Shown here: positions 4,465 through 53,789 of the stretch, in pieces | Layout: every line of letters starts with the position of its first letter | Position numbering within the stretch: position 1 is the first letter of the stretch | DNA from: an uncultured Gammaproteobacteria bacterium | Lineage (GTDB): Bacteria; Pseudomonadota; Gammaproteobacteria; GCA-001735895 | DNA: 64,000 nt | Assembly (NCBI GenBank): GCA_937894085.1 | Contig: CALCSG010000217.1 | Coordinates: forward strand, 2,199 to 66,198 | Direction: 5' to 3' | Notes under the pieces: model-generated | The model's database searches: none | What the model was told of the DNA's origin: nothing | Seen by the model: only the letters and a program-made list of their open reading frames with translations | Translations under genes and position numbers: made by a program

Positions 4465-4489
4465 TGCATTACTCCACTATTATTATTTT

Positions 4490-4525
4490 TAGTTATATTA
4501 AAACAGCCCCATTTAAGGGGCTAAA
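4490..4525 (-). terminator. Hairpin (agcccc-atttaa-ggggct), terminator/attenuator-like between cytochrome b and the HAO-like gene
   Basis: 6-bp GC stem at 4505-4510/4517-4522, followed on the minus strand by GTTTTAAT. Sits in the 92-bp gap between two minus-strand genes. Confidence 0.3.
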
Positions 4526-4556
4526 TTCAATTGCTGGTATTAATAAATATTTCTAA

Positions 4557-6781: not shown

Positions 6782-6866
6782 GATACCCCCTCCCTAAAGT
6801 TTATTGCTTATAGTATCTCTGACCAAAGGCTGTAGACATTCATCTACAGCCTTTACCAGAACCCTC

Positions 6867-8156
6867 TTACAAGGAGTTTTCAGCCGAAGCAATCATCTTC
6901 GGAGCAGTTACATCTGTGGGGAGTTTAGTAAACTTTTTAACCAGACCAGGCCATAGCAGGTTGTAATATAACTCTGCACGAACCAGCTCTACACCTTTAG
7001 CAGGTATCGAGTATTCCAGGTCACGTTTTTCAAATGCTTTCAATCGAGTATCTGCACCCTGACCTTTTGCAGTTGGTGGACCTGTTGGCTTTCCATCACC
7101 ATCAACTAGAGTCAAAAACATAAATGCTTGTTTATCTTCTTTAGCGGGGTGGCCTTTAGCATTTTGCCAAACTACATTTCCGCTCTTATCATAAGCTGAA
7201 ATCTTTACATAGATATTTCTAAAGGGAGCGCCTGTAGGCATGGTATGTGGCTGTTTATTCTTAATCGTAACAGTCGACATTATGTTACCGCCATTCTTCT
7301 TACTGTCCATACTGAATAGTACTGAACGCTGTAACATACCCAAATCATGTCCACCGCCCATACTGTGATCGGCTACAGCATCATTAGTCGGCATGTGGCA
7401 TGACAGGCAATCAACCTGTGCATTACTGGCAATGTATTCATCACCCGTTGCACATAGAGGAACACCGTGAGAATTATTGCGCTTATCATGACAACCCATG
7501 CAAGCATCTGAACTTCTCAACTGCGTTGGGTTACTTTCCATAGGCATCGCCTGAATGGTCTTACCATCAATGGTTACCGCCTCGCCCAGATGTGGGTTCG
7601 GTTTTTGATCTGCTTCTCCACCACCAAAACCAAATGCATCACCGGCTGATGCCAGTTTCTGTAATTTAGTATTAGAATGGCGACCGGATCCCTGCAGCAC
7701 GTCAGAAACTTCATATGCCATCATACCGAGCTGCATTTTTCCATTTGCGGCGGTAGTACCTTTAAATTTTTTCAATGTATGACAGGCTACGCAGTTGACG
7801 CCTTCAGCATAGGCAGGTGTCGCGTCAAGTTTGGTCTTTTTATCTTTGGCGGCATTCGGGGCATGGCACTGTATACAAACTGGAAATTTGCCTGCTTTTG
7901 TTTTTACACCCTCCTGACCAGGATCACCAACAACGTTTCTATAAAATGTTCCATGAATGGGATCGTTGAACGCGGTACTGTTCGCATGCATCGAACCTTT
8001 CCATTGTTTATAGATTTCTTTATGGCAGGTTTTACAGGTTTCAGATGAGACCTGGTGAATTGATTTGTCAGCAAACACATTTGTAGCTGAGACTAAACTT
8101 AAACCACAAAATACAATTGCTGAAAATAACATCGAAGTTTTTGTCTTGTTGCGCAT
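6867..8156 (-). CDS. Pentaheme c-type cytochrome with a ~150-aa haem-free C-terminal domain
   Basis: 429 aa with a signal peptide and five CxxCH motifs (CKTCH, CIQCH, CVACH, CMGCH, CLSCH). First gene of the minus-strand cytochrome cluster, with a 494-bp AT-rich upstream region. Confidence 0.7.
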   Translation of the reverse strand: MRNKTKTSMLFSAIVFCGLSLVSATNVFADKSIHQVSSETCKTCHKEIYKQWKGSMHANSTAFNDPIHGTFYRNVVGDPGQEGVKTKAGKFPVCIQCHAPNAAKDKKTKLDATPAYAEGVNCVACHTLKKFKGTTAANGKMQLGMMAYEVSDVLQGSGRHSNTKLQKLASAGDAFGFGGGEADQKPNPHLGEAVTIDGKTIQAMPMESNPTQLRSSDACMGCHDKRNNSHGVPLCATGDEYIASNAQVDCLSCHMPTNDAVADHSMGGGHDLGMLQRSVLFSMDSKKNGGNIMSTVTIKNKQPHTMPTGAPFRNIYVKISAYDKSGNVVWQNAKGHPAKEDKQAFMFLTLVDGDGKPTGPPTAKGQGADTRLKAFEKRDLEYSIPAKGVELVRAELYYNLLWPGLVKKFTKLPTDVTAPKMIASAENSL

Positions 8157-30816: not shown

Positions 30817-33800
30817 TTACAATTGAGCCGGTACAATGGATTCTGTTTGCCGATAATCTGCAAGGGGTGCTGCACTGACTTCAACAAGATCTTTTCTTAC
30901 AAAACCGAAGAGTTCACGTAGAACAACCGATAGTGTGGTGAAATCCGCTGCTGGTACAGCATTCAACTCGGCGATCAGTTGCACACAGTGCTCAATTTGA
31001 AATCCATGCGCAGCTCTCCAGCTTTCCATTTGATTACTCGATTCATCCTGTAGCGGACTATTTAGCACATCGATACAGATAGACTTCTGCAGATATAACA
31101 GATCATCGCGCAGTGACACGCGAGCAATCGCCTGCCAGCGCGTATTACGTGGCAACTCGCCTATCTTTTCTCTCAGCCAGGGAAGTTGCAGTAAATCACC
31201 CAACCCAAAAAATGTTGTCACCACGCTATCCAGCTCGATATGAGTCTGGATGGAGATCTCCACTAATTCCATCGAAGCGGAAAGGGTATCAAAAATCATA
31301 CTGTGTGCAGCAAGCTGTTCGGGAACGCCGGATTCCAGCAAGTGTCTATATTTCTGGTTGACCTGCGCCTGATGATGAATGAAATCTGACTGCAACAGGG
31401 CGGCGACATACTGTATTCGAGCCTGATATCGCTCCACGTTGAGTTTGATGTGTATCGGGCGCGGCGCATTCTGAATCATCCAGCGCACCGAGCGTTCCAG
31501 CAACTTACGCGTCTCAAACATCATGTTCTTCTGTACATCCCTGTCGCTAATATCCAGACTCTCAATCTGCTTCCACACATTATTTAAGCCAAATATCTCC
31601 CGCACAATGATAAATGAGCGTGTGATATCGCCTTCCGTTGCGCCCGTCTCTTCCTGCATTCTATACATAAAGGTAATGCCTGCTCGATTGACTAAACCGT
31701 TAGCAAGTTCGGTGGCGATAATTTCGCGACGTAAACGATGTCCCATCATCGCGTCCGGGTAAGCACTGCGTAACGCAGTGGGAAAGTAATCGATTAGTGT
31801 CTGCTCCAGGTATGGATCATCAGGAAGGTCAGATGCAATCAGGCCTTTCGACAGACCGATTTTTACATACGCAATCAACACCGACAGTTCCGGTGCTGTC
31901 AGGCCTTCTGACGCACTCAGTCGTTCCTGCATAACCTCATCCGTGGGCAGATATTCCAACGCCCTGTTCAACCCGCCCTGATGTTCCAGTTTACGAATCA
32001 AACGACCATGAGCTTCAAGCATCCTGCGCGAATTAAAACTGGACAGGCTCAGGGCCTGGGTCTGATAAAAATTATTTTTCAGCACCAGAAGCGCGACCTC
32101 ATCCGTCATGCTGGCGAGTAATTCACTACGCTGTTGTAAGGTCATTTCTCCGCTAGACATGACGGTATTCAGCAGTATCTTGATATTGACTTCATGATCA
32201 GAACAATCGACGCCGGCGGAGTTATCGATGGCATCGGTGAAGATGCACCCTTTTTGTTGAGCGAACTCGATACGTCCAGACTGGGTCAGTCCCAGATTTC
32301 CACCCTCTGCCACTACCCTGCAACGTAATTGATTGCCGTTGATGCGTAACGCTTCATTGCTGCGGTCGCCCACATCTGCATGTTGCTCATGCGATGCCTT
32401 GACATAGGTGCCAATGCCGCCATTCCACAGCAGATCAACCCTGGCTTTTAACAGCAGCTGTATGAGTTCAACAGGGGTCAGCCGGGTCACGCTGATTTGC
32501 AGTCGATGAGCCATCTCTTCACTGAGCTGTATCGACTTCGAACTGCGCGCAAAGATACCGCCGCCCTGAGAAATAATCGACCTGTTATAATCTTCCCAGC
32601 CTGAGCGAGGCAGATTGAATAGCCGCTCGCGCTCAGCATAAGACTGTTCACAATCTGGGTTGGGATCGAGAAATATATGCTGATGATTGAAGGCGCCAAT
32701 CAGCTCAATGTTGCGCGATAGTAACAGCCCATTGCCGAACACATCACCACTCATATCGCCAATACCGACGACCGTGAAGGGATTATTATCTATATCCATC
32801 GACAGATCTTTGAAATGTCGCTTAACCGACTCCCAGGCGCCGCGTGCAGTAATGCCCATGCCCTTATGATCATAGCCTACAGAACCGCCTGATGCGAAAG
32901 CGTCGCCCAGCCAGAATTGATAGGAAGCAGCGACCTCGTTGGCGATATCAGAAAAAGTTGCAGTGCCTTTATCAGCTGCCACAACCAGGTAAGGGTCATC
33001 TCCATCATGACGAAAAACCCGCTCTGGCGGAACGGGTACACCATCAACCAGGTTGTCAGTAATATCCAGCAATCCGCTGATGAAGGTCCGGTAACAATTG
33101 ATGCCTTCAGCAAGAATCTGATCGCGTGTTCCCTGCACGGGCAACTGTTTTGTCAGGAAGCCGCCCTTGGATCCACCTGGAACAATTACCGAGTTTTTCA
33201 CCATCTGTGCCTTGACCAGCCCCAGCACCTCGGTGCGAAAATCCTCCTGCCGATCAGACCAGCGTAATCCGCCGCGCGCTATTTTGTCGCCGCGTAAATG
33301 CACACCTTCCACACGTGGGGAATAAACAAATATTTCATATTTAGGCCTGGGTTCAGGCATGTCTGGCACGCGAGCAGAATCGAATTTAATCGACAGGTAA
33401 TCATGTTGTCCACCCTCCCTGTTTAACTGGAAATAATTGGTGCGCAGGCTGGCCGAGATTGCGCCCATAAAACGCCGGATAATACGGTCTTCATCAAGAC
33501 TTTCTACCTGCTCCAGAAGTTGAATAATCTGCGCCTCCAGCTGTGCATTACGTTCTTCACGCGAGCCCGTGAAATCCGGGTCAAAGCGCGTCTCAAACTG
33601 CTGAATCAATATTGCAGCAATGTGCGCATTTCCTACCATCGCCTGGATCATATAGTCGTGACTGAAGGTGCCACGCACCTGGCGAAGGTAATGCGAATAG
33701 GCGCGTAAAATATCGACCCGACGCCAGTCAATAATGGCGCGTAGAATAAGCCTGTTGAATCCATCGTTAGAGGATTCACCCTGAAATATACGTTTAAAGG

Positions 33801-35721
33801 CATCCTCAAAAAAACTTTTAACCTGCTCCAGCTGCAACTCCTGTTCGGTATGCTGCAGGCCGAAGTCATGAATCCACACAGTCTCCCCACTTTTCAGCCT
33901 GATCCTGCTGGAATGTTCATCTATGACCTTCAGGCCCATATTCTCCAGCATGGGCAGGGCTTCTGACAACGCCACAGCTACTCCGAAACTGAACAACTTG
34001 AAGCGTAACAAATTGTCAGGAGAGTCTTCCTTACGCAACAGCTCCATCGAAATATCGCCTGGCTTTTGCAGAGCCGCGATATGTTTTATATCCTGCACCG
34101 CTTCCTCAGGCGAATAGGATTCACGGTAATCCGCCCGAAACCCTTCTCCGTAAAGTCGAAACAATTGAATACCCTGTTCTTCTCCATGAGTTCCAATCAG
34201 CGCATTGCGCATCAGGTCTCGCCACGGCTGTGAGACGGCGACAATGTCGGATTCTATGTTTTTTATATCGAATAACTTGATCGCGTCCGATGAGATATGT
34301 ATTAGAAAGTTTACTCTCGCCAGCAGCGCTTCATTGATCTGCACACTAAAGTTTACCGTTTCACCACCCAGCGCCTGTTCGAGAATTCGACCGATACTCT
34401 GCCGCACCTCGGTATTAAAATGGTCGCGCGGTATAAATACCAGGCAATTATAAAAACGGCGATAGGGATCCTTACGAATAAAAATCCTGGTTTCCTGCCT
34501 TTCCTGCAGTTGCATGATGCCAATAGAGGCCTCAAGCAATTCATCCTCGCTGATCTGAAACAACTCATTGCGAGGGTAATTCTCCAGAACACTCAGCAGG
34601 TTGCGTTCTGCATAGCTGTTTTGATGCAGACCGCTGCGTCTTAATACATTTTCCACCTTGCGGCGCAACAGCGGAATATGATGCGTGTCACTGGTATAGG
34701 CCGATGAGGTATATAAGCCCAGAAAGCGGTGCACTCCGGTCACTTCACCCTCGGTATTGAATGTTTTAATGCCAATGTAATCCATATAACCGGGTCGATG
34801 CACCCTGGATGCTGAACCGGACCGGGTTAGCACAAGCAGCTCGGGCACACGCGCCAGACGGCGAATATCAGCTGGCAGGGAAGCAAAACTGCGGCACAGC
34901 TGTTCACCGTCATCACTCTCTTCCTTGCGCAATATGCCAAGTGAAGTTCCCGGAATTATATTTAACTGGTCTTCACCATCTAAATTGACCAGGCTGTGTT
35001 GACGATAACCCAGGAACACGAAATTTCCTTCCAGCAGCCATTGCAGGTAGGCAAAATTTTCATTTAATTCATCATTTTCAAGCGGCAGCGCCTGGCTTTT
35101 TGCCTGCGAGAGAACTTCAGATAATCTGACACGCATAGCTGCAAAATCTGCTACCGCGGTTTTCACATCAAGCAGGGCCTGTTCGATCCGCTTATGGATT
35201 TGGGTAAGCGACTCCTCATCATTTTGTCGATCAATCTGGAAATGCATAAAGGATTCATCAACCAGATGTTTTTTAGCTGACCGCGGTGCACCGGCCGTTT
35301 TGAAATGTCCTTCCTCTCCACGCTGTACATGCATCACGGGATGGATCGATAGATGAATGGATGAACCGTCCTGATTGATCGCCATACGTACGGAATCGAC
35401 CAGAAAAGGCGTATCGTCGGTGATAATGTCAATCACTGTATGCGCCGATTCCCACCCATCCCGCTCCAAAACAGGGTTATAAACACGTATCAGCGCATCG
35501 CTACCGGGTAACCGTTGCTTCGCAATATTCCAGTGCGCCAACAGCAAAGCGTATACATCTTCTATGGTGGCTTCTTCCAGGTAGTCGGCTGAAATGCCCG
35601 CAAGATAAAGTCTGACAAAGGACTCCAGATCGTTTGCCTGACCCGGTAAACGATCATGCAAAAGCTTAGACATTTTAGTTATATAGCCATCCAGGGAAAC
35701 GGGCATCTGCATCATCCTCAT
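30817..35721 (-). CDS. gdhB: NAD-specific glutamate dehydrogenase, large (~180 kDa) GdhB type
   Basis: 1634 aa. Length and sequence are characteristic of the bacterial giant NAD-GDH family (Bac_GDH). Confidence 0.9.
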   Translation of the reverse strand: MRMMQMPVSLDGYITKMSKLLHDRLPGQANDLESFVRLYLAGISADYLEEATIEDVYALLLAHWNIAKQRLPGSDALIRVYNPVLERDGWESAHTVIDIITDDTPFLVDSVRMAINQDGSSIHLSIHPVMHVQRGEEGHFKTAGAPRSAKKHLVDESFMHFQIDRQNDEESLTQIHKRIEQALLDVKTAVADFAAMRVRLSEVLSQAKSQALPLENDELNENFAYLQWLLEGNFVFLGYRQHSLVNLDGEDQLNIIPGTSLGILRKEESDDGEQLCRSFASLPADIRRLARVPELLVLTRSGSASRVHRPGYMDYIGIKTFNTEGEVTGVHRFLGLYTSSAYTSDTHHIPLLRRKVENVLRRSGLHQNSYAERNLLSVLENYPRNELFQISEDELLEASIGIMQLQERQETRIFIRKDPYRRFYNCLVFIPRDHFNTEVRQSIGRILEQALGGETVNFSVQINEALLARVNFLIHISSDAIKLFDIKNIESDIVAVSQPWRDLMRNALIGTHGEEQGIQLFRLYGEGFRADYRESYSPEEAVQDIKHIAALQKPGDISMELLRKEDSPDNLLRFKLFSFGVAVALSEALPMLENMGLKVIDEHSSRIRLKSGETVWIHDFGLQHTEQELQLEQVKSFFEDAFKRIFQGESSNDGFNRLILRAIIDWRRVDILRAYSHYLRQVRGTFSHDYMIQAMVGNAHIAAILIQQFETRFDPDFTGSREERNAQLEAQIIQLLEQVESLDEDRIIRRFMGAISASLRTNYFQLNREGGQHDYLSIKFDSARVPDMPEPRPKYEIFVYSPRVEGVHLRGDKIARGGLRWSDRQEDFRTEVLGLVKAQMVKNSVIVPGGSKGGFLTKQLPVQGTRDQILAEGINCYRTFISGLLDITDNLVDGVPVPPERVFRHDGDDPYLVVAADKGTATFSDIANEVAASYQFWLGDAFASGGSVGYDHKGMGITARGAWESVKRHFKDLSMDIDNNPFTVVGIGDMSGDVFGNGLLLSRNIELIGAFNHQHIFLDPNPDCEQSYAERERLFNLPRSGWEDYNRSIISQGGGIFARSSKSIQLSEEMAHRLQISVTRLTPVELIQLLLKARVDLLWNGGIGTYVKASHEQHADVGDRSNEALRINGNQLRCRVVAEGGNLGLTQSGRIEFAQQKGCIFTDAIDNSAGVDCSDHEVNIKILLNTVMSSGEMTLQQRSELLASMTDEVALLVLKNNFYQTQALSLSSFNSRRMLEAHGRLIRKLEHQGGLNRALEYLPTDEVMQERLSASEGLTAPELSVLIAYVKIGLSKGLIASDLPDDPYLEQTLIDYFPTALRSAYPDAMMGHRLRREIIATELANGLVNRAGITFMYRMQEETGATEGDITRSFIIVREIFGLNNVWKQIESLDISDRDVQKNMMFETRKLLERSVRWMIQNAPRPIHIKLNVERYQARIQYVAALLQSDFIHHQAQVNQKYRHLLESGVPEQLAAHSMIFDTLSASMELVEISIQTHIELDSVVTTFFGLGDLLQLPWLREKIGELPRNTRWQAIARVSLRDDLLYLQKSICIDVLNSPLQDESSNQMESWRAAHGFQIEHCVQLIAELNAVPAADFTTLSVVLRELFGFVRKDLVEVSAAPLADYRQTESIVPAQL

Positions 35722-36128: not shown

Positions 36129-37037
36129 ATGATACTCGGTCAACTCAACGATATAGATGTGAAGTTATTACGCGTGTTTCGCCAGATTGTGGAATGCGGC
36201 GGCATGACTGCTGCGGAGCTGGAATTAAATATTAGTCGCTCTGTCATCAGCAGGCAGTTAAAAGACCTGGAGATACGACTGGGAGGGCTTCGTCTGTGTC
36301 AACGAGGTCGCGCCGGATTTGCACTGACCGATGAAGGGCAGCATGTGTATGATTCGATCATCAAGTTACAGACCGCGATGGACTCGTTCCGCGCCGAGGT
36401 CAACGACCTGCATCAAAAAATGACCGGTAACCTGGTGATTGCTCTGGGTGATCTCACCATGACAAATCCGCATGCGCGTATCTCACAGGCAATACAGAAA
36501 TTCAATCAAATTGCACCTGATGTCTCGCTGGAATTACATGCCCAGTCACTGAATGCCATTGAGTCGAGTATCATCGATGGAGCTTATCACATAGGGATCG
36601 TACCTCTGCACCGAAATTCCAGTAGCCTGGATTATCACCCCTTATTTAGTGAAAAGATGCATATATACTGCGCCCGCTCTCATCCACTGTTTGATGCTGA
36701 CCACAGCAAGCTGGACTGGGATGATATAAAACATTACCCATTTGCCGGGCTGGGCTATCATTCGCCCAATATGGAATTAACGCACGAAAAGGGGCTAAAG
36801 CGCAGTGCAACAGCATATGATCAGGAGTCCATCGCCACCCTGATTAGCTCGGGAATTTATATCGGTTTTTTACCCGATCATTATGCGGATATTTTTGTCG
36901 CGGATAGTCACATGCAGCGCATTGAGAATGAAACTTTTGAATACGACGTACAGTATTCCGCCATTATCCGGCGCGCACCTGTTTCATCGCGTAGCGTACA
37001 TGTACTGATGCAATGTCTGGTGGAAGCTCACCAATAA
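36129..37037 (+). CDS. LysR-family transcriptional regulator, divergent from the gdhB operon
   Basis: 302 aa. N-terminal wHTH (LLRVFRQIVECGGMTAAELELNISRSVISRQLKDLE) plus a LysR substrate-binding domain. Confidence 0.85.
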   Translation: MILGQLNDIDVKLLRVFRQIVECGGMTAAELELNISRSVISRQLKDLEIRLGGLRLCQRGRAGFALTDEGQHVYDSIIKLQTAMDSFRAEVNDLHQKMTGNLVIALGDLTMTNPHARISQAIQKFNQIAPDVSLELHAQSLNAIESSIIDGAYHIGIVPLHRNSSSLDYHPLFSEKMHIYCARSHPLFDADHSKLDWDDIKHYPFAGLGYHSPNMELTHEKGLKRSATAYDQESIATLISSGIYIGFLPDHYADIFVADSHMQRIENETFEYDVQYSAIIRRAPVSSRSVHVLMQCLVEAHQ

Positions 37038-37314
37038 ATATTTATCCGCACAAATCGAATCAATTCGTTTCAATGCATGAACAGTTTATCTATTCCAGGT
37101 ATTCTACTGCCGAAGCGATTACGGACTCTGCTACTGACAGCTGTTAGCTAACATTTATATTCCTGTTAAATTTGGATCAATTAACCGCTAATGCGGGGAA
37201 GCCCGAACAGGAATCCTGATATTTCCTGTCTTCCCGGACAATCCCGCCATCCAGCGGCGGGATATAAATCCACTTAACTAACAGCCCTGTTCCAGACAAT
37301 CTCCAGTGTCAAGT

Positions 37315-37566
37315 TCACTTCATGTGTTTTAGCAATTTCAGTCCTTTTCTACGCTGAGCCACAATGACTTCAATTTCTTTCTTATCACTTTTGTTTGTCC
37401 CTTTTTCCTTTGCAGCTTCCAGCTTTTTACAAAGTTCCTTCTGCTTGGCCTTGAGTAATTTCAGCACCTTCTTAAGGTACTTTTTTTTCCCTTGCTGCTT
37501 TTTTTTAGATTCATCAAAAAAATCATTGATGGCCGTCAATAGCTTATTGGTCTTTATTTTTTTCAT
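37315..37566 (-). CDS. Small lysine-rich basic protein (hypothetical)
   Basis: 83-aa ORF, about 35% Lys with a coiled-coil-like repeat pattern. Sits 14 bp downstream of the Na/Pi cotransporter gene on the same strand. Confidence 0.35.
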   Translation of the reverse strand: MKKIKTNKLLTAINDFFDESKKKQQGKKKYLKKVLKLLKAKQKELCKKLEAAKEKGTNKSDKKEIEVIVAQRRKGLKLLKHMK

Positions 37567-37580
37567 CTAAGAGTTATCCT

Positions 37581-39452
37581 TTAATGCTGTAAGTTGACGA
37601 TTTCATCAGCATCATCTTCATCAAGCTGCACACTACGTAAGGCGGCTTTAAAATCACTATCACCTTTCGTAAACAGTACTTCTCCCATTTGCACGAGATT
37701 TCTTGCCACGTCATAGGCATAAGCAGAGTCGTTCATCAGTGAGGTTGCCATTCTGGCAGTGATCCGGCCTTCCCGGATTAGACGTTCGATGGTGTCATTA
37801 ACCATGCGGTCATGTTCTTCCATTTCAAGTTTAATCACATCCATCAACAGCATTTCTCCCATATCATCTTCATCTTTTCTGATATTCTCCAGTCTGCGCA
37901 TAACCGAACCAAGTCCAGCTCGTATCTTGTTATATTCCTCGCGGATATACTGGTTATCGGAGGCTATGTACTGAACAAGATTACCATGCATATGTTTGGT
38001 ATCTTTGATGGCTTCTACTATGTCCCGGCCTGCCGCCCTTAGCATGAATAACTCGTCGGCCTGTTGCTCCGACATGTTCAGGGAAGACTTACTGATAAAA
38101 CTGACAATCTCACTATATAAATCCTTGATCTTGTTATCATATTCATCATCCATATCGATACTCATCGGCTTACCAGGTTTATCGGCTATATCTTCCAGAC
38201 TATCTTCTGACAAAATATCATGGCGATGCAGGCTCAGCCCGTGGGCAATAATTGCGAAAGCATTTTCATACAGGTGTACGGTTTCTTTACGCACGGATTC
38301 CAGCGCGGTATCCGGCAACTCAAAGGCAGACTCGTTCAGATACATTGGCTCCGCTTCGGCAATTGTTTTATCAGGCATCAAGCGGGTAACCAGACGCACC
38401 AGTGGATTAACCAGCGGTATCATGATGATGACGCCCGCAACATTGAATATGGTGTGGAATACGGCAAGTTTAAGCGTGTAGTCAGTTGGTGCGAGACCAA
38501 TAATGTCTGAGATGACATCAACCAGCCAGGTAATTTGATTGATCATCAGTATAAATACAATCCCGGCCGACACCTTAAACAAAACATCTGACAGGGCCAG
38601 TCGCTTGCCATCTGTATTGGATGTCAGAGAACCCAGTATGGCAGTGATAGTGGTACCTACGTTGGCACCTATAACCAGTGCCAGCGCGTTATCATAGGTC
38701 AGTTGCTGCACCGACAGTGCGGTTATGACCAGTACCAGTGTGGCGTGGCTTGACTGCATGATAATGGTGGCCAGTATTCCAATCAGGGTAAATACCAGCA
38801 ACCCGGCAAAACCTTCCATTGCGTAGTCAGTCAGGTTGATTTGAGTCTGGAATGTCTCAAAACCTTCTTTCATGTGGTGAATACCCAGAAAAAGGAACCC
38901 CAGTCCAGCCAGGATGTAACCAAACCCTTTTAACGATTTAGATTTCTGGAACACCAGCACCACGCCAAACACCAGCATCGGCATTGCGTAGGCAGAGATT
39001 TTTACCTTTAAACCAAAACCCGCAATGAGCCAGGCGCCGGTCGTGGTACCAACATTGGCACCAAAGATAATACCCATACCCTGTACCAGCCCAATAAGAC
39101 CTGCACTTAGAAAAGAGATAGTAATAACGGATACAAGAGAGCTGGACTGCATGATGGTCGCAGCAGTAAAACCAAAGGACAGGCTTTTCCACATTTTGTT
39201 AGTGCTTTTACGCAATACTTTTTCCAGCGTGCCGCCGGTAAATGCCCGGAATCCCTCTTCCAGTGAAAACATTCCAAATAGAAAGATAGCGACACCCGCT
39301 GCTATTTCCTTGAAATTAGGACTAATCCAGAACCCATAGGCGAGGATGACAAGCATTGTCGGCAAGATTATTTTTTTTAGCATATTCCAGTATTTCTCAT
39401 AATTAAAGATGTAATTAAACGCAGATAATAAACGAAGGTTGGTAGACTTCAA
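37581..39452 (-). CDS. Na+/phosphate cotransporter family protein (NptA/YjbB-like) with C-terminal PhoU-like domain
   Basis: 623 aa. Duplicated GANVGTT motifs in the TM region and a C-terminal soluble PhoU-like helical domain. Confidence 0.85.
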   Translation of the reverse strand: MKSTNLRLLSAFNYIFNYEKYWNMLKKIILPTMLVILAYGFWISPNFKEIAAGVAIFLFGMFSLEEGFRAFTGGTLEKVLRKSTNKMWKSLSFGFTAATIMQSSSLVSVITISFLSAGLIGLVQGMGIIFGANVGTTTGAWLIAGFGLKVKISAYAMPMLVFGVVLVFQKSKSLKGFGYILAGLGFLFLGIHHMKEGFETFQTQINLTDYAMEGFAGLLVFTLIGILATIIMQSSHATLVLVITALSVQQLTYDNALALVIGANVGTTITAILGSLTSNTDGKRLALSDVLFKVSAGIVFILMINQITWLVDVISDIIGLAPTDYTLKLAVFHTIFNVAGVIIMIPLVNPLVRLVTRLMPDKTIAEAEPMYLNESAFELPDTALESVRKETVHLYENAFAIIAHGLSLHRHDILSEDSLEDIADKPGKPMSIDMDDEYDNKIKDLYSEIVSFISKSSLNMSEQQADELFMLRAAGRDIVEAIKDTKHMHGNLVQYIASDNQYIREEYNKIRAGLGSVMRRLENIRKDEDDMGEMLLMDVIKLEMEEHDRMVNDTIERLIREGRITARMATSLMNDSAYAYDVARNLVQMGEVLFTKGDSDFKAALRSVQLDEDDADEIVNLQH

Positions 39453-39722
39453 TATTAGAAAGCATTAAAAAGCAATAACTGGGCCAATAATTGGACTTAA
39501 CAATTAATTCCTTAAATAACAATAACTTATCTTAATACTTTAAGTAAAAAGAAAGGAGTAAGGGGGTGTAACCAAATGAATAAGTTCTTAACACATATTC
39601 AATGAATAAACTGATCAAAAAAGGTTACCTAAGAGCTTAAGACCTTTATCAGATCTATAAAGGCCAAAAACTGTGACAGCAGAAAAAGGGGTAATAAGAT
39701 AACGAGCTAAACTATCATTTGG

Positions 39723-40052
39723 TTACAGTGACCGATCTTTACAAAATCTGTAATACAGATGCAGAGCATTAATCACTAAATAGTTTTGGCTCTTTCGCCT
39801 TTGTTGCTGGATATTCGAAACCACAGGAGGTCTTTCAGGGGCACCATCAGTAACAGAAACGAGAGCCATAATAATCAACAGCAGCAAAATAAAAATTGTT
39901 TTTTTAAGATTTTGAATCTCTTTATTTTCTCGTTTTTCACGGTTAGACCGGTCACTCATTGTTTTACTAATTGGATTACTTATTGGTTTACTTATTGGTT
40001 TACTTATTGGTTTACTTATTGGTTTACTTAAATCACTAGTTGTATTCATCAT
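39723..40052 (-). CDS. Small membrane protein with N-terminal (KPIS)n tandem repeats, sigma-54-dependent
   Basis: 109 aa. KPISKPISKPISKPISNPISK encoded by a 12-bp DNA tandem repeat, then a basic segment and one TM helix. A sigma-54 promoter lies 28 nt upstream. Confidence 0.5.
   Translation of the reverse strand: MMNTTSDLSKPISKPISKPISKPISNPISKTMSDRSNREKRENKEIQNLKKTIFILLLLIIMALVSVTDGAPERPPVVSNIQQQRRKSQNYLVINALHLYYRFCKDRSL
39959..40030. repeat. 12-bp tandem repeat (TTGGTTTACTTA) x ~6, in-frame within the small ORF
   Basis: Four perfect and two degenerate copies. Encodes (S/K)PIS repeats on the minus strand. Confidence 0.8.
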
Positions 40053-40089
40053 TTAATCTCTCTCAAATATAGATTGGATATAATGACTT

Positions 40090-40106
40090 AAGCAATAATT
40101 GCTCCA
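40090..40106 (-). promoter_or_regulatory. Sigma-54 (RpoN) -24/-12 promoter: TGGAGC-N5-TTGCT
   Basis: Minus-strand sequence TGGAGCAATTATTGCTT matches TGGCAC-N5-TTGCW with GG and GC at the canonical spacing. It sits about 40 nt upstream of the ATG of the repeat-protein gene and directly downstream of an NtrC-family activator gene. Confidence 0.6.
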
Positions 40107-40228
40107 ATTATACTAATAGATGACAAATACCTGTATATTCAAAGAGTTATAAATTTTTTTGGTGGTATAGAGAGACTAATAGAGGGTGTAATGAAATACT
40201 GGTTTTATAACCCATCGAGCAGGAGAAA

Positions 40229-40246
40229 CAGCTTTTCGAACAGCTG
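40229..40246. promoter_or_regulatory. Near-perfect 18-bp palindrome (CAGCTTTTCGAACAGCTG), candidate enhancer/UAS for the NtrC-type activator
   Basis: 16 of 18 positions are palindromic. Located about 130 bp upstream of the sigma-54 promoter. Confidence 0.3.
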
Positions 40247-40369
40247 GGTTAAGCGCGGAAAGGTCTCGGCGAGGCAACCTGAATCATCATTAAGTTACAC
40301 CCCCTTTACGATCAATAAACACCATTAAGCGTGCGGAACAAACTGTAACATGAAGATTTTGCTTTATAG

Positions 40370-41803
40370 CTATTCTTCATTATTATGCAAACGTGCCAGC
40401 CGACGATTCAAAGCTGGACGGGAAATCCCGAGCAACGTGGCTGCCACCCCCTGATTACCATTGGCTCGCTGCATCGCTTCACGTACCAGGCAGGTATCTG
40501 CCTGGTTGAGCGTAGGGAATTGTCCCGGTATCTGTAGCAGGTTGTTGTTTTCAAGCTTGCTCGTTTCGGTTTTCCGGGCGGGCATAATCTGCTGCTGTTT
40601 TTCAACCGCATTTCTGAATCGATCGAGAGAAAGTATCGAGCCGGATCGATGGGTAGCGACGGCATCAAAAACCAACGCCCTGAGCTCCCGAATATTACCA
40701 GCAAAGTGATATATTCCCAGCAAGTCATACAGTTCCGGAGGGGCGACCAGGTCATCTTTTCCCATAGATTTTGCTGCATCTACCACAAACCGTTTAACCA
40801 GTAAGGGTAAATCTTCCCGTCTATCACGCAATGGCAAAAGTTCAATCTGATGTACTGACAGGCGAAAATATAGATCAGAACGAAAATCATCGTCCAGCAT
40901 ACGTTGATGGAGATTTCTATTAGTTGCACAGATAATGCGTACATCACTGTTAATGCTAATATCCGAACCCAGTGGGTTATACCTTTTTTCCTGTAGCAGG
41001 CGTAACAATTTAATCTGTGATGCGTGAGATAACTCTCCAATCTCATCCAGAAAAAGGGTACCGCCCACTGCTGCTGAAATCAGTCCTTTGCGGGTATCTG
41101 TAGCCCCGGTAAAGGCACCTTTCTTATGCCCGAAAAGGGTATCTGAAAACAGCGCGTCATCCAGCCCGGCGACATTAACGGGTATTAACTCACCAGTGAG
41201 ACCACTTAACTGATGGATTGTTCTGGCCAACAATTCCTTACCTACTCCGGTTTCGCCGGTGATTAACACGGGCTCATTTGAATTAGCGATAGCCTCTGCA
41301 TACTGGAAAACCGAGTGCATTTTTTTACTAACCGTATCGAAACAGCTGAATACCTGAGCATGCTCAAGCTTATTGGTTAACAGATAATCCTTCAGCACGT
41401 TAACCTGTCGTCGCAGAGAACGCATTTCTACAGCTCGCTTAACACTGGATATCAGTCGACTTTCCTCGACAGGTTTGACCAGATAGTCAAACGCACCCTG
41501 TTTCATACTTGATACAGCTGTTTCCACATCCTGCGCTGCCGTCATCACAATGACCGGAACCTCAGGATAACTTTTTATCAGAGCAGGCAATAAGTCGATT
41601 CCAGATATTTCAGGCATATACAGATCAAGCAAAATAACCGCGACTTCCTGCTGCTGAAGAAGCGGAAGCAAATCACGGCTATCCTGCAAGGTAATAACCG
41701 GTTTTAACCCGGCACCCGATAACAGCAATTTTGAACTATGCAGTACCGTGGATTCATCATCCACCAGTACCAGAGGAAGCTCGGTGGAAGCTTGATAACT
41801 CAT
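40370..41803 (-). CDS. Sigma-54-dependent response regulator (NtrC family: REC - AAA+ - Fis-type HTH)
   Basis: 477 aa. Receiver domain with a D-containing acidic pocket, GETGVGKELLARTIH Walker A, a GAFTGA-like sigma-54 interaction region, and a C-terminal HTH. Confidence 0.9.
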   Translation of the reverse strand: MSYQASTELPLVLVDDESTVLHSSKLLLSGAGLKPVITLQDSRDLLPLLQQQEVAVILLDLYMPEISGIDLLPALIKSYPEVPVIVMTAAQDVETAVSSMKQGAFDYLVKPVEESRLISSVKRAVEMRSLRRQVNVLKDYLLTNKLEHAQVFSCFDTVSKKMHSVFQYAEAIANSNEPVLITGETGVGKELLARTIHQLSGLTGELIPVNVAGLDDALFSDTLFGHKKGAFTGATDTRKGLISAAVGGTLFLDEIGELSHASQIKLLRLLQEKRYNPLGSDISINSDVRIICATNRNLHQRMLDDDFRSDLYFRLSVHQIELLPLRDRREDLPLLVKRFVVDAAKSMGKDDLVAPPELYDLLGIYHFAGNIRELRALVFDAVATHRSGSILSLDRFRNAVEKQQQIMPARKTETSKLENNNLLQIPGQFPTLNQADTCLVREAMQRANGNQGVAATLLGISRPALNRRLARLHNNEE

Positions 41804-42217
41804 CTATTTTGACTCCTGATAAACAGGTAAACGGATACTGACCACGGTTCCTGAGTCACTGGATGACTCAAAGTTTAAAGAGCCATGATGATTCTCTATG
41901 ATCGTACTGGATATGGATAATCCGAGGCCAGTACCACCGGATTCAAGACGGGTGGTGAAGAAAGGTTCTGTCACCCTTGCAATATCTTTATCGTCGATAC
42001 CGCTACCCTGATCCACTATACGGATCAATAAGAACTTACTTTCTGAATCAATCATTGACTCTACTCTGACAGCCTGATTTTTATTGGTCAGGGATTGTAG
42101 CGCATTCAGCATGACATTGATAAATACCTGCTCCAGTTGCTGAAAGTTACCTTTAATTATGGGAATATCCGCTGCAAGTTGAGTTACCCAATGATGAGTG
42201 TATTTGTGAACCTGATT
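41804..42217 (-). pseudogene. 3' portion of the sensor histidine kinase (N-box/G1/G2 HATPase_c domain), separated from the upstream portion only by an in-frame TGA
   Basis: The same reading frame as the upstream ORF continues through the TGA at 42218-42220: ...SASAIL*NQVHKYTHHWVTQLAADIPIIKGNFQQLEQVFINVMLNALQS...DQGSGI...GGTGLGLSI. Confidence 0.6.
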
Positions 42218-44383
42218 TCATAATATTGCAGATGCCGATCTGATTACCATATTAATATCAACATTTTCATTCAAATCACCTGGGTCATTTTTGCCGAGGC
42301 GCTTCAGGTTTTCTACGATCGCTTTGATGCGTCTGGAATTATCCTTGATTTCAGATATCAACTCTCCCAGCGCATCTCCTTCTTCGGCAAACGACAGGCC
42401 ACCCACAGAGAAGTCACCCTGCAGCTGATAATATTCTCTGAGCACCGGCATGGCGTCTTCCCACACATGACTGAACAGTGCCGCACCGGTCTGAATCGCA
42501 TTATTCGGATTATTGATTTCGTGCGCTACACCGGTGGCAAGCACCCCGATAGTAGCAAGACGGGCATTGCGGATGGCATGAGCCTGGAAATTTCTTTTTT
42601 CGGTAATATCCGTGGCAATCACCATGGCCGTTTGAACCTCATGTTTTTCCAGAATGGGGACTATCCTGATTTCCAGCCAGCTCGACTCATCATTGGTCGG
42701 GTACTGAAAATAACCCACTTCACCTTTTTGAAAAGCCTGTGCCAGTAACTGCCTGTAATCTTGCTGATAGTTAGCAGGCACTAAATCAGCAGATTGTATT
42801 TCCTCTCCACGAATACCGGAAAATTCCAGCGCGGCTCCACGGTTCATCATGAGTATTTTTCCTGCCCCGTTCACCGACATTATTCTGTCTGGCGACTGAT
42901 TGAAAATAACGCGTAATTTTTCTTCTGAATCTCGCAGGTCATCATCAGCCTGTTTTTTCTCGGTAATGTCTTCAGCGACTCCAACCAGTCTGTAGATGCT
43001 GCCGTTTTCATCACGTACCGGAAAAGCATTATCTCTAATCCAGCGTTGACTACCATCCGCTCGTCTAACCCGGTAAATTGCTTCCATTGAACCCGATCCT
43101 TTAACAGCATTATTCAACGCCTCTAACCATTGCCCCCGGTCATCAGCATGAATTGCACTGGAAAACAGTGCAGGATCTGCATACAGTTCTTCGCACTGAA
43201 TACCCCATAGCTTTTCGATAGCGGGACTGACATACAGAAAGTGACTTCTATCAACCGGCATTGCCCAGTAAACATCATCAACCGTTTCGCTCATTTGCCA
43301 TAACAGTTGCTCCCGGTCTTTTAGTAACTGGTCTATTTTCTGGCGTTCCTGCAGGCCAAGTTTCATCCTGAGCAGAAAAGTGGATAAAAGCAGGGTAAGC
43401 AGGATACCGGTAAAAAGCACAGCAACCGGTGCTTTTTCAAAAGCCTCAGCACTGCGAAAATGTTCATTTGCCGCAGCCGTAATCGTCCATTTCCTGTCGC
43501 CCATTAAAACGACTTCAGAAAGAAAATTTTTACGATGCATCAGCCATTCCTGTATCTGGGGTTCCCCAAACTCTCTGGCCGAATTCAGCCGACTGGAATA
43601 ATATTCCAGAAAACGGGAGTCGATATCAGCATTATCATCCTGGATCAGCACATCAACCCCGCGCGGTTCCAGGTAACTGATCGCCGCATGAGCCAGCTCA
43701 TCCAGCTTCAACACTGCCACAACAAACCCGCTTAAGCTGGCAGATTCCTGCTCAAATCCTGGCGTAAATGTTGATTTTTCGGAAATGCCGGAATACAGCG
43801 GATGACAGGCGATGATTACATATTTATCATCGTTCGCACTGGATAGTTTTAACCGTCCACTGACTGTCATCTCGCCAGTTTGCATTGCTTTGAATATCGT
43901 TTCACTGAGAATTGAGCCCGGTATAATCCTGTATCCTGGTTGAAACCGGTTACTCCCCCGATTCTCTGCAAAAGTCAGACTGGAAAATGCCCCCGGTAAG
44001 CTGTTAGCCTGCAGCTGAACAGAGCCCTTGTAGCTGCTATCATCAGCAACGACCAGGCCAATCATTTCTATACCTGGATTTCGCTCAAGCAATGGCATTA
44101 CAACCCGATGAAATTGATCAGCAGTGATCGATTCAATAGACTGTACATAATCTCCAGTCATCCTGACCGGTTCCAGCGCACTTTCAAAACCCAGTTTTAA
44201 CAGACGGTTACGATTATGAGCAACCCAGCTAAATTCATTATCTCTTTGTATGCCGAACTGTTTGTTGACAACCCAGAAAGCAGCCGCGGTAAACGAAAAC
44301 CCCAATAAAGCAATCAGCCATATCACCAGATGCTCACTCACAAGATGCTGAATAAATTTTACAATCTGGCCGAAATTTTTCAT
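42218..44383 (-). CDS. Sensor histidine kinase, 5' portion: TM - periplasmic CHASE-like domain - TM - 2xPAS - HisKA (H-box VAHEINNP); truncated by an in-frame stop
   Basis: 721-aa ORF ending 40 codons after the H-box, with no ATP-binding domain in this ORF. Confidence 0.75.
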   Translation of the reverse strand: MKNFGQIVKFIQHLVSEHLVIWLIALLGFSFTAAAFWVVNKQFGIQRDNEFSWVAHNRNRLLKLGFESALEPVRMTGDYVQSIESITADQFHRVVMPLLERNPGIEMIGLVVADDSSYKGSVQLQANSLPGAFSSLTFAENRGSNRFQPGYRIIPGSILSETIFKAMQTGEMTVSGRLKLSSANDDKYVIIACHPLYSGISEKSTFTPGFEQESASLSGFVVAVLKLDELAHAAISYLEPRGVDVLIQDDNADIDSRFLEYYSSRLNSAREFGEPQIQEWLMHRKNFLSEVVLMGDRKWTITAAANEHFRSAEAFEKAPVAVLFTGILLTLLLSTFLLRMKLGLQERQKIDQLLKDREQLLWQMSETVDDVYWAMPVDRSHFLYVSPAIEKLWGIQCEELYADPALFSSAIHADDRGQWLEALNNAVKGSGSMEAIYRVRRADGSQRWIRDNAFPVRDENGSIYRLVGVAEDITEKKQADDDLRDSEEKLRVIFNQSPDRIMSVNGAGKILMMNRGAALEFSGIRGEEIQSADLVPANYQQDYRQLLAQAFQKGEVGYFQYPTNDESSWLEIRIVPILEKHEVQTAMVIATDITEKRNFQAHAIRNARLATIGVLATGVAHEINNPNNAIQTGAALFSHVWEDAMPVLREYYQLQGDFSVGGLSFAEEGDALGELISEIKDNSRRIKAIVENLKRLGKNDPGDLNENVDINMVIRSASAIL

Positions 44384-51309: not shown

Positions 51310-51828
51310 ATGGATTTGTATAACACTGAAAATATTATCCGGCTGATACCCGGCATTGTCGTACTGTTTGCCGGGAGAAATATTTTCTGGTTGTTCATAG
51401 CCCTGATTGGTTTCCTGGCAGGCATCCAGTTCGCCAGTTTATGGCTGGCAGATCAGCAGACCTGGATGATCCTCATGGCTGGCGTGTTTGCCGGAATAAT
51501 TGGCGCGCTACTGGCCGTAGTCTTCGAGCGGGTGGCTTTTGCGCTGGCCGGATTCTACGCGGCGGCGTTGTTAGCGAGCTTGTCAGCCGCCAGATTCGGG
51601 GTAATGGATATTCACCTGGTTATGATCGTCGCCGGCATAGCTGGCGCGCTCATTGCATTTGTGCTGACCGACTGGGCCATCATTATTCTATCCGCACTGG
51701 CGGGGGCTGCGACGATCGTTTCAGTGTTTGCACTAGAACCGCCGATCGAAAGCAGTCTCTTTATCGTACTCGCCATAATTGGCGTGCTGGTACAGAGCGC
51801 CATGCTGAAACGGCATAAAACAGGCTGA
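51310..51828 (+). CDS. Hypothetical integral membrane protein (5-6 TM)
   Basis: 172 aa, Ala/Gly/Leu-rich hydrophobic ORF with an RBS-like GGAGA upstream. Confidence 0.55.
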   Translation: MDLYNTENIIRLIPGIVVLFAGRNIFWLFIALIGFLAGIQFASLWLADQQTWMILMAGVFAGIIGALLAVVFERVAFALAGFYAAALLASLSAARFGVMDIHLVMIVAGIAGALIAFVLTDWAIIILSALAGAATIVSVFALEPPIESSLFIVLAIIGVLVQSAMLKRHKTG

Positions 51829-52157: not shown

Positions 52158-53789
52158 ATGTTTAGATTTTTCCAGGAAATGGAGGATGCCGCAGAAACCT
52201 CCAGTAAGGCTAATTTTATCAAATATGGTATTGTCATTATCTTCATGATAGCGGTACTTATCCTGAGCTTTAACTCTATGGGTGAGTTACCGACGAATGT
52301 ATTCCTTGTTATAGCAGCACTGTTTGGTGCCTATATGGCAATGAATATCGGCGCAAATGATGTCGCTAATAATGTCGGCCCGGCAGTGGGTTCAAAAGCC
52401 CTTACACTCGTAGGTGCCATCATTATCGCGGCTATATTTGAAGCTGGTGGAGCTTTTATCGCCGGTGGCGATGTCGTGGGTACCATTAAAAATGGCATTA
52501 TTGATATAAAGGCTTTCCATGGCGATGTGAATAGCTTTATCTGGGCCATGATGGCGGCACTTCTCGCGGCAGGTTTATGGTTAAACCTGGCAACTAAATT
52601 TAAAGCACCTGTTTCTACCACTCATGCAATTGTGGGTGGCGTGATGGGAGCGGGTATTGCGGCAGGCGGGTTTTCCATCGTTTCCTGGGGAACCATGGGA
52701 GAAATTGCAGCTTCATGGGTTATCTCACCAGTACTGGGTGGCATCATAGCGGCAGCATTTTTATTTTCTATTAAGAAATCCATGGTTTTTAAAGAAGATA
52801 AAGTAAACGCAGGTAAGTTTTGGGTTCCAGTTTATGTCGCTATTATGACATGGGCATTTGCCACTTATCTCACCTTAAAAGGTCTTAAGCAAATATGGCC
52901 CAAAATTGTCGATATCCTGCCATTTCTGCCAGATGAGAAGAAGCCCAGTTTTATGATTGCATCTATTATTGGCCTGATTCTCGCGGTAATTGTTTTCTTC
53001 GTTGTTAGAAGGAGCGTATCACTGAAACAAAACCTGAAAAACGATAGAGCCAGTATCAATACTTTATTTACCGTTCCGCTCATCTTTGCAGCTGCATTGT
53101 TGAGTTTTGCACATGGAGCGAATGATGTCGCGAATGCGATTGGACCACTGGCTGCGATTAGTGATGCGGTCAATACGGGAGGCATTGCTTCGAAGGCGAG
53201 CATTCCATTCTGGGTGATGGCCGTTGGCGCACTCGGTATTGTTGTTGGCCTGGCATTATATGGTCCTAAGTTGATTAAAACGGTCGGTTCAGAAATAACA
53301 GAACTGGATCAGATGAGGGCTTTTTCGGTCGCTATGGCCGCTGCGGTCACGGTCATTGTGGCCAGTCAGCTTGGGCTGCCGGTAAGTTCTACACATATTG
53401 CCATTGGTGGTATCTTCGGTGTGGGTTTCTTACGGGAATATTTACAGGGCCATAAGGAAGTCATTAAACTGGATGAAGAAGAAAGAAGACTGGTGAAAGA
53501 AGAAAACAAGCTGGAGCAATTCCGCGAAAATCTTCAGGAATTATTAGATCTGCCTGATGACAAGAAAGATAAAAAAGTTTACAAGCAAATCGGTAAACTT
53601 TACGAGATGGTAGAGCATGAAGAAAGAATTCTAGAAGAAGAACAGCGTATTGTTAGTACTTTACAAAGGAAAAAATATGTAAAAAGAGATGCCTTTAAAA
53701 AGATTATTATGGCATGGATTATTACAGTTCCTGTTGCCGCAGTTCTTTCCGCGTGTATTTACTACATGATTAGAGGCATGATGCTTTAA
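52158..53789 (+). CDS. Inorganic phosphate transporter, PiT family, with a long charged cytoplasmic loop
   Basis: 543 aa. Duplicated GANDVAN signatures (GANDVANNVGPAVGS; GANDVANAIGPLAA). Confidence 0.9.
   Translation: MFRFFQEMEDAAETSSKANFIKYGIVIIFMIAVLILSFNSMGELPTNVFLVIAALFGAYMAMNIGANDVANNVGPAVGSKALTLVGAIIIAAIFEAGGAFIAGGDVVGTIKNGIIDIKAFHGDVNSFIWAMMAALLAAGLWLNLATKFKAPVSTTHAIVGGVMGAGIAAGGFSIVSWGTMGEIAASWVISPVLGGIIAAAFLFSIKKSMVFKEDKVNAGKFWVPVYVAIMTWAFATYLTLKGLKQIWPKIVDILPFLPDEKKPSFMIASIIGLILAVIVFFVVRRSVSLKQNLKNDRASINTLFTVPLIFAAALLSFAHGANDVANAIGPLAAISDAVNTGGIASKASIPFWVMAVGALGIVVGLALYGPKLIKTVGSEITELDQMRAFSVAMAAAVTVIVASQLGLPVSSTHIAIGGIFGVGFLREYLQGHKEVIKLDEEERRLVKEENKLEQFRENLQELLDLPDDKKDKKVYKQIGKLYEMVEHEERILEEEQRIVSTLQRKKYVKRDAFKKIIMAWIITVPVAAVLSACIYYMIRGMML

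Follow-up and report, generated by a model that had tools for sequence, protein, structure and literature searches.

A conserved enhancer-type layout accompanies a predicted sigma-54 promoter between an NtrC-type activator gene and a Na/Pi cotransporter family gene in an uncultured gammaproteobacterium

Overview

The stretch of DNA analysed here, a 64-kb window from an uncultured gammaproteobacterium, carries on its minus strand a locus in which a sensor kinase gene, an NtrC-type activator gene, a gene for a small membrane protein, a Na/Pi cotransporter family gene and a lysine-rich open reading frame (ORF) follow one another. An initial annotation had placed a textbook sigma-54 promoter, called P1 below, in front of the small gene, and had taken an 18-bp near-palindrome upstream of it for the regulatory site. 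Comparison with related lineages points, with a probability of roughly 0.7, to a sigma-54-dependent unit of the classical type, in which an enhancer, a site for integration host factor (IHF) and a -24/-12 element act together. P1 is very probably a genuine sigma-54 promoter, controlled by the two-component activator encoded next to it. What is conserved upstream of it is an IHF-like site and two inverted GGGGTGTAAC boxes, and the boxes, not the palindrome, form the predicted enhancer. The evidence consists of sequence, conservation and domain searches; activator binding, IHF use, dependence on the sigma-54 factor RpoN and the transcript start are inferred from it. The elements around P1, and the two genes that flank them, are as follows:

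39723..40052, minus strand: small membrane-protein gene, 109 aa, with a basic N-terminus, one transmembrane helix ending SVTDG, a KPIS repeat and a lineage-specific C-terminal extension
40091..40106, minus strand: promoter P1, TGGAGC-AATTA-TTGCT, a -24/-12 element with a predicted start near 40080
40137..40149, plus strand: IHF-like site of P1, ATTCAAAGAGTTA, one mismatch to WATCAANNNNTTR
40181..40197, plus strand: proximal box of P1, AGAGGGTGTAATGAAAT on the plus strand and ATTTCATTACACCCTCT in gene orientation, from the repeat search and alignments
40229..40246, no strand assigned: near-palindrome CAGCTTTTCGAACAGCTG, 8 of 9 pairs complementary, between the two P1 boxes and probably not functional
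40287..40306, minus strand: distal box of P1, AAGGGGGTGTAACTTAATGA, an inverted repeat with the proximal box, core GGGGTGTAA
40370..41803, minus strand: NtrC-type enhancer-binding response regulator (the activator), with a receiver, an AAA+ domain with GAFTGA, and HTH_8

Promoter anatomy across lineages

Thirteen promoters from about nine lineages were compared: eleven of the P1 type (the window, L170, L008, L006, L087, L088, L092, L173, L177/L178 and L179) and two copies of a second promoter, P2, described below. The TGG and [T/C]TGC of the motif are invariant and identically spaced in all thirteen, and in the P1 type the TGG lies 51-61 nt before the ATG of the small gene. In the window this distance is 54 nt, with 38 nt between the end of the motif and the ATG at 40052, so that the initial annotation, which put the motif about 40 nt upstream, had located it correctly. 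The bases between TGG and TGC drift (TGGAGC, TGGTAC, TGGCTT, TGGTAT, TGGCCC, TGGTCC). In 11 of the 13 promoters an IHF-like site with at most one mismatch to WATCAANNNNTTR occupies -41 to -43 with its strand unchanged, and it is perfect in L087, L173 and L177/L178. By comparison, a shuffled region of about 240 nt contains 0.59 matches of this kind at any position. Farther upstream, the proximal box TTACACCC(C) is found 83 to 86 nt from the TGG, with the exception of L008 (-98), and the core of the distal box, GGGGTGTAA, lies 195-200 nt upstream of the TGG in nine of the ten P1 promoters whose contigs reach that far. The tenth is again L008, a Sedimenticola metagenome-assembled genome (MAG), where the distal box stands at -380 rather than about -197 because an insertion of some 180 nt separates the boxes (L008 7525-7780); evidently the enhancer either tolerates this distance or can do without its distal box there. 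The truncated contig L176 (TGGCAT) retains both the TGG motif and the IHF-like site.

Alignment of the intergenic DNA revealed nothing conserved outside these elements. Such a layout, conserved beyond chance, is the standard anatomy of an enhancer-dependent promoter, and the comparison provides strong evidence that P1 would be functional. The closest relative, L170, shares 76% DNA identity with the window over the locus. The activator protein occurs in identical form on 13 metagenome contigs, and its nearest relatives among species-representative genomes, at 78-80% identity, belong to Sedimenticola MAGs and to the MAG of a lucinid-clam symbiont.

The score of P1 and the points against it

How much would the motif be worth on its own? 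A sigma-54 weight matrix was built from 29 intergenic Salmonella sites (Table 3, PMC3844500), which themselves score 16.0-23.5 bits; it is thus an enterobacterial matrix, and it penalises the variation at -24/-23 that is typical of this clade. P1 reaches 7.4 bits and ranks 28 of 127,966 window positions, and the 28 sites that score at least as well compare with 24.9 +/- 4.7 in shuffles, so the scan does not separate the flagged site from background. Simple patterns do no better: the window has 8 copies of TGG-N8-TTGCW where 6.65 are expected, and counts of neither this pattern nor TGGCACG-N4-TTGCW show enrichment. Both P1 and P2 carry the GG and GC dinucleotides at canonical spacing (the TGGCACG-N4-TTGCW frame). 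With 7.4 bits against 16-23.5, and a frequency equal to that in shuffles, the word "textbook" is not justified. The promoter itself holds up on comparative grounds, since the relatives conserve the anatomy of an enhancer-dependent promoter despite the weak score.

Several points weigh against a sigma-54 unit at this locus. Judged by the matrix alone, P1 occurs at background frequency and falls below the range of known promoters, and TGGAGC lacks the usual C-24 and A-23, which makes it a poor fit to enterobacterial promoters. A perfect TATAAT (40113-40108, minus strand) abuts the -24 element, without a -35 partner and without conservation. Neither an rpoN nor an ihf gene was found in the window, nor an RpoN-box motif. 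The boxes are not dyad-symmetric, which is unusual for the sites of Fis-type helix-turn-helix dimers. Lastly, the kinase reading frame is cut short by a stop codon in this population, and induction of the system may thus fail here.

One alternative is that the -24/-12 match is fortuitous and that the small gene owes its transcription to read-through out of the activator gene or to a sigma-70 promoter built on the TATAAT. The background-level score and the perfect -10 hexamer fit such an explanation, as does the lack of a convincing terminator past the activator gene, where the weak stem of the palindrome is the sole candidate. However, about nine lineages preserve TGG/TTGC at a fixed spacing and a fixed distance to the ATG, although the flanks drift and the TATAAT is not kept, and an IHF-like site and boxes in such rigid positions make sense only for an enhancer-dependent promoter. 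There is also no -35 partner for the hexamer, and a scan for sigma-70-type promoters upstream of the small gene passed none. A fortuitous match is therefore unlikely. A Pho box or a sigma-70 promoter at P1 was considered as well, since TTGTCAT...TATAAT looks like half a Pho box and a -10 hexamer. It was rejected because the second half-site and a -35 partner are both absent and the stretch is not conserved.

Candidate enhancer boxes

In their relation to P1, the boxes form a pair with TTACACCCC at about -85 and the inverted GGGGTGTAAC at about -197 from the TGG. Of the short form GGGTGTAAY the 64-kb window contains four copies, where 0.79 would be expected; three of them are at this locus. The helix-turn-helix of the activator, LLGISRPALNRRL, is identical in every lineage that bears the boxes and differs in homologues (42-58% identity) that lack them; since the identity holds exactly where the boxes occur, they fit as binding sites of the activator, and we infer that the activator would bind them. 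The distant homologues (L009-L034, 42-58% identity) often have a TGG-N8-TTGC downstream. As boxes, small protein and Na/Pi gene are all missing there, these belong to other regulons.

Could the boxes serve something else? Being asymmetric inverted repeats 111-115 nt apart, they might serve a different regulator, or be the termini of a small element that is mobile or invertible. However, their position and orientation with respect to the promoter are constant in all lineages, no recombinase or transposase gene lies nearby, the boxes are not dispersed (three of four copies in 64 kb at this locus) and they track the conserved helix-turn-helix of the activator, all of which makes another use quite unlikely. 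Over the distal box runs a 13-codon ORF (MMIQVASPRPFRA) with a good Shine-Dalgarno look, which was rejected as a gene: an ATG is missing there in L006, and the ORF of L008 is another one, of 25 codons. Since the 13-codon ORF is not conserved, the "ATGAT" is better seen as part of the DNA box.

The near-palindrome

The 18-bp near-palindrome is present as described, with 8 of 9 pairs, though "right after" the activator stop codon was a loose way to place it, as 124 nt lie between. Its credentials as an upstream activating sequence of the activator are those of its form, CAGCTGTTCGAAAAGCTG: a 16/18 dyad, as is usual for an NtrC-family operator, 123-140 nt upstream of the -24 element, with a loosely similar CTGTTYGA in some relatives. 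Yet palindromes of this size and quality (18 bp, at least 8 of 9 pairs) number 14 in the window against 7.3 +/- 2.7 in shuffles, and 6% of shuffles of its own 81-nt segment contain one equally good. In L170 the corresponding stretch is CTGCTGCCTGAAAAGCTG, which keeps only 4 of 9 pairs and alters the TTCGA core. The best dyad was sought in each inter-box segment of the other lineages, where the sequence is unrelated, and none rises consistently above shuffles; the region upstream of P2, set against that of P1, has no counterpart of the palindrome, and the palindrome columns are not conserved in the alignment of the eleven promoters. Because the symmetry is lost in L170, recurs nowhere else and is absent from P2, the palindrome drops out as the enhancer, and a role for it as the binding site is highly unlikely. 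By these comparisons it is a lineage-specific chance feature.

A second predicted promoter, for the Na/Pi gene

The arrangement around P1 recurs downstream of the small gene, in front of the transporter gene:

39715..39727, plus strand: distal box of P2, degenerate, CACTGTAACCAAATGA in gene orientation, overlapping the stop codon of the small gene; present in L170
39634..39672, minus strand: hairpin GGCCTTTAT-N7-ATAAAGGTC between the small gene and P2, with no U-run; a similar stem in L170
39561..39577, plus strand: proximal box of P2, AGGGGGTGTAACCAAAT on the plus strand, 85 nt before the P2 TGG exactly as in P1
39517..39529, plus strand: IHF-like site of P2, TAACAATAACTTA, one mismatch, at -43 as in P1
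39471..39486, minus strand: promoter P2, TGGCCC-AGTTA-TTGCT, a -24/-12 element 103 nt before the Na/Pi ATG
37581..39383, minus strand: Na/Pi cotransporter family gene, 600 aa, with the ATG chosen by gene callers on identical contigs
37315..37566, minus strand: lysine-rich ORF, 83 aa, 14 nt past the Na/Pi stop; a conserved partner of the transporter

P2 scores 14.8 bits with the Salmonella-derived matrix (training sites 16.0-23.5) and ranks second in the window, where 0.83 sites that good are expected. A repeat search showed that three short segments of P1 and P2 recur in an exact 620-nt register, and alignment of the two upstream regions brought out a common box, ATTT..TTACACCC, 85 nt before each TGG, plus an inverted copy farther upstream. 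The distal box of P2 forms a perfect 13-nt inverted repeat with its proximal box and aligns with the distal box of P1. On this alignment P1 and P2 are paralogous, two copies of a duplicated arrangement. P2 is kept in L170, and the lineages of the window and L170 are the only ones to have it; in the others, the gap of 73-390 nt between the small gene and the Na/Pi gene contains neither a sigma-54 motif nor a box.

Since most of the other lineages have a single promoter, co-transcription of the small gene and the Na/Pi gene is probably the ancestral state. The initial annotation had suggested that the Na/Pi gene and the lysine-rich ORF could share the transcript from P1, and this probably holds for those lineages; in the window the Na/Pi gene does not depend on read-through, as it has its own, better promoter in P2. 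The hairpin at 39634-39672 was rejected as a terminator (no U-run, z = -0.74), and read-through past it may add to transcription from P2. The lysine-rich ORF, which starts 14 nt after the Na/Pi stop, is surely co-transcribed with the Na/Pi gene. A search of 37000-41000 against Rfam matched no RNA family.

The transporter gene belongs to its family by both Pfam (PF02690 at 162.9 bits against a gathering threshold of 29.1, in two stretches that cover both Na_Pi_cotrans repeats) and NCBIfam (NF037997 at 160.8 against a cut-off of 50), an assignment at the level of the family. The lysine-rich ORF matches no Pfam or NCBIfam family. On its 3' side, a GC-rich hairpin (ATCCCGCC-N7-GGCGGGAT, 37241-37263, minus strand) without a T-run faces a LysR-type gene (36129-37037) that converges on the operon, whose end the hairpin may mark.

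The best match to the sigma-54 matrix anywhere in the window is a separate site, TGGCGCGCTCATTGCATT (51642-51659, plus strand, 15.0 bits), inside the ORF 51310-51828. It lies about 500 nt upstream of a gene for a PiT/PHO4-family phosphate transporter (52158-53789), with no GGGGTGTAAC box nearby.

A proposed mechanism

Together, these elements suggest how the locus may work. The activator (40370-41803) would bind the two inverted boxes, each some 17 bp long with the consensus GGGGTGTAACCAAAT, which begin 85 and 197 nt upstream of the TGG; counted from the predicted start, this is roughly -110 and -220. At its site 43 nt upstream of the TGG, IHF would bend the DNA, and the ATPase of the activator would then open the complex of sigma-54 holoenzyme on TGGAGC-N5-TTGCT, with transcription starting near 40080. 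The first product would be a small inner-membrane protein with a basic, probably cytoplasmic N-terminus and one helix ending SVSDG/SVTDG. The duplicate arrangement (boxes, IHF-like site and the element at 39471-39486) would drive the Na/Pi gene and the lysine-rich ORF, and as the arrangement is duplicated, both units should be controlled by the one activator. A single promoter would serve all three genes in most related lineages.

The activator and its kinase

The activator appears equipped for this task: its acidic pocket, D60, Walker A (GETGVGKE), Walker B (DEIGEL), GAFTGA and Fis-type helix-turn-helix are all intact, and Pfam recognises Response_reg, Sigma54_activat (1.3e-57), AAA_lid_14 and HTH_8. 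Its best solved relatives are NtrC1-type proteins. It stays under the cut-off of every NCBIfam equivalog compared (AtoC, NtrC, ZraR, GlrR, LuxO and others), the best being AtoC with 331.8 bits against 714. With an intact activator, and TGG/TTGC kept in every orthologous locus examined, P1 is likely to be its direct target, as the initial annotation had proposed. On one contig (L180 1787-3216) the activator gene is split into ORFs of 412 and 63 aa, the latter with the helix-turn-helix; in its sister contig L179 the gene is whole (476 aa), and the split is a frameshift or an assembly error.

The other half of the proposed kinase and regulator pair is less secure. The kinase gene reads as two pieces:

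42218..44383, minus strand: sensor histidine kinase, N-terminal 721 codons, with CHASE, two PAS and HisKA domains (Pfam), ending at an in-frame TGA (42220-42218)
41804..42217, minus strand: continuation of the kinase in frame, with the N-box and HATPase_c; as a separate ORF it has an ATG at 42112 and 102 aa

The TGA stands between HisKA and the ATP-binding domain, at a position where L006, L008, L170 and L179 have lysine. Because it is shared by five independent metagenome assemblies, it is not a sequencing error. Selenocysteine was rejected, as the relatives carry lysine and not cysteine at this position. With an in-frame stop in the gene, the signal input may be lost or altered.

This raises the possibility that the architecture is genuine and that the module is decaying or being rewired in this population, with the kinase a pseudogene, the small gene under relaxed constraint and the activator deaf to its original signal. 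The recurrence of the TGA in five independent assemblies speaks for it, and so do two features of the small gene discussed below, a repeat number that varies from 5 to 3 and a lost stop codon that adds about 30 residues of a basic tail atypical for the family. On the other hand, the kinase frame 3' of the TGA is intact, free of frameshifts and 65-68% identical to its orthologues, as conserved as the rest of the gene, and the activator, both promoters and the transporter are intact too. Either the input was lost recently in this population, or the kinase may still be made by UGA read-through or as two pieces. Decay is a possibility to be taken seriously, if a minority one; the regulatory layout proposed here is common to both readings.

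A small membrane protein found with the regulators

The 109-aa membrane protein with KPIS repeats had been described correctly: the ORF (39723-40052) carries SKPIS repeats and one hydrophobic segment, the repeat being a 12-nt unit in 6.4 copies (39954-40030). The copy number of KPIS varies between contigs that do not differ otherwise, with five units in the window and L001 against three in L002 (L002 4560-4620), and two assemblies (the ends of L003 and L089) break inside the repeat. As the changes are always in frame, this is variation in length and not phase variation. The reading frame, the hydrophobic helix and the motif (L/I)A.xSVSDG are conserved through the family, the helix codons of L087 and L088 differ only synonymously, and a Shine-Dalgarno sequence precedes the gene in five of the six lineages read, L092 having a weak one. 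By these signs of conservation the small protein is the product of a real gene. The N-terminal regions of the family are basic (5-12 Lys/Arg in most) and the C-terminal tails short and neutral or acidic, so a topology with the N-terminus inside is predicted.

Family members typically have 57-83 aa, and the window copy reaches 109 aa through two lineage-specific changes. In one, SK(P/I)IS has expanded into the KPIS repeat. In the other, the stop codon of L170 has been lost (aaggTGAgag to aaggCGAaag; window 39723-39815, L170 4195-4290), so that translation ends at a TAA within the distal box of P2 and the protein gains its extra basic tail. The family is rare: an indexed search gave 5 matches, and 17 unnamed clusters are found among 1.84 billion representatives. 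No Pfam or NCBIfam family matches it, and it has no homology to the described families compared (MgrB, SafA, KdpF, AcrZ and others).

What does the protein do? In all small-protein contexts fetched the Na/Pi gene lies downstream, and wherever the contig reaches far enough the CHASE kinase and the activator lie upstream. The reverse does not hold. Among 80 loci with Na/Pi orthologues fetched from metagenomes (54-73% identity), the activator, distal box and small ORF occur together in a single one (L092) and are missing from the remaining 79, among them L090 and L091 at 72% identity, and a Pfam search with the genes upstream of orthologues without the regulator pair matched nothing. The lysine-rich ORF (about 83 aa) follows the Na/Pi orthologue in many loci, with or without the regulator pair (L091 4150-4404, L090 3491-3751, L177 2741-3001). 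It looks like an undescribed partner of the transporter, and as it occurs in many loci without the regulators, the transporter and the lysine-rich protein are the older pair. Kinase, activator, promoter and small protein would, on this distribution, be a module added in one clade.

Because equally close Na/Pi orthologues do without it, and because it is found only with the kinase and the activator, the small protein probably has a signalling role: gene linkage suggests a partner or feedback modulator of the kinase rather than an obligatory subunit of the transporter. The more specific proposal, that the SVSDG protein is a dedicated accessory of the CHASE-kinase/sigma-54 activator system, modulating or feeding back on a kinase that controls a Na/Pi-type anion transporter, is a tentative one. 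If true, it would describe a new signalling module of three parts that is confined to sulfur-oxidising Gammaproteobacteria resembling Sedimenticola and to their symbiotic relatives.

Relation to known systems

Known systems offer parallels for each part of the locus. In rhizobia, DctB/DctD and dctA are an example of sigma-54-dependent two-component control of an adjacent transporter gene. The genes for a kinase and an NtrC-family activator likewise adjoin a transporter gene here, with two upstream sites about 100 nt or more from the -24/-12 element. However, the sensor in this case combines a CHASE domain with two PAS domains, in place of adjacent dyads there are asymmetric boxes in inverted orientation, about 112 nt from each other, the cargo is a Na/Pi-family transporter with a small membrane protein in front, and there is no orthology (equivalogs stay below cut-off). 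NtrB/NtrC with glnAp2, and NifA with nifH, are the textbook cases of enhancer, IHF and -24/-12 promoters. The locus shares with them the order of elements, an enhancer 100-200 nt upstream, an IHF-type bend site in between and GG/GC one helical turn apart. Its boxes are unrelated to TGCACC-N5-GGTGCA or TGT-N10-ACA, and its -24 hexamers (TGGAGC, TGGCTT, TGGTAC, TGGCCC) depart from TGGCAC.

In ZraS/ZraR-zraP and PhoQ-MgrB, a two-component system induces a small envelope protein that feeds back on the sensor. Here too the most direct target is a small envelope protein found only with the sensor and regulator pair; it shares no sequence similarity with those proteins, and the feedback is a hypothesis drawn from gene linkage. 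KdpF is a small membrane peptide encoded first in the kdpFABC transporter operon under two-component control, and the present locus resembles it in having the gene for a single-helix peptide directly upstream of a transporter gene, within one transcription unit in most lineages. The likeness ends with L090 and L091, whose Na/Pi orthologues lack the small gene, so an obligatory subunit role is unlikely. In sum, this is an ordinary kind of regulatory unit outside any named regulator family. A literature search on sigma-54 control of Na/Pi transporters found nothing relevant.

For a CHASE-domain two-component system that is uncharacterised so far, the locus offers a clean regulon open to experiment, with a candidate enhancer box, an IHF-like site and two predicted sigma-54 promoters. 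It ties this system to a transporter of the Na/Pi family in sulfur oxidisers, both free-living and symbiotic, whose handling of phosphate is little understood, and it defines a rare family of small membrane proteins, with a helix ending SVSDG, that gene callers and family databases leave unnamed. It also holds a caution for the reading of motifs: the -24/-12 match and the palindrome each occur at background level, and comparison alone separated the real from the chance one. The same comparison yielded the actual predicted enhancer and the second promoter, both missed in the first reading.

Other content of the window

Elsewhere, the window carries a multihaem cytochrome cluster and a gene for a 1634-aa NAD-specific glutamate dehydrogenase (regions 3010-8156 and 30817-35721), ordinary chromosomal content that is consistent with a Sedimenticola-like gammaproteobacterium.

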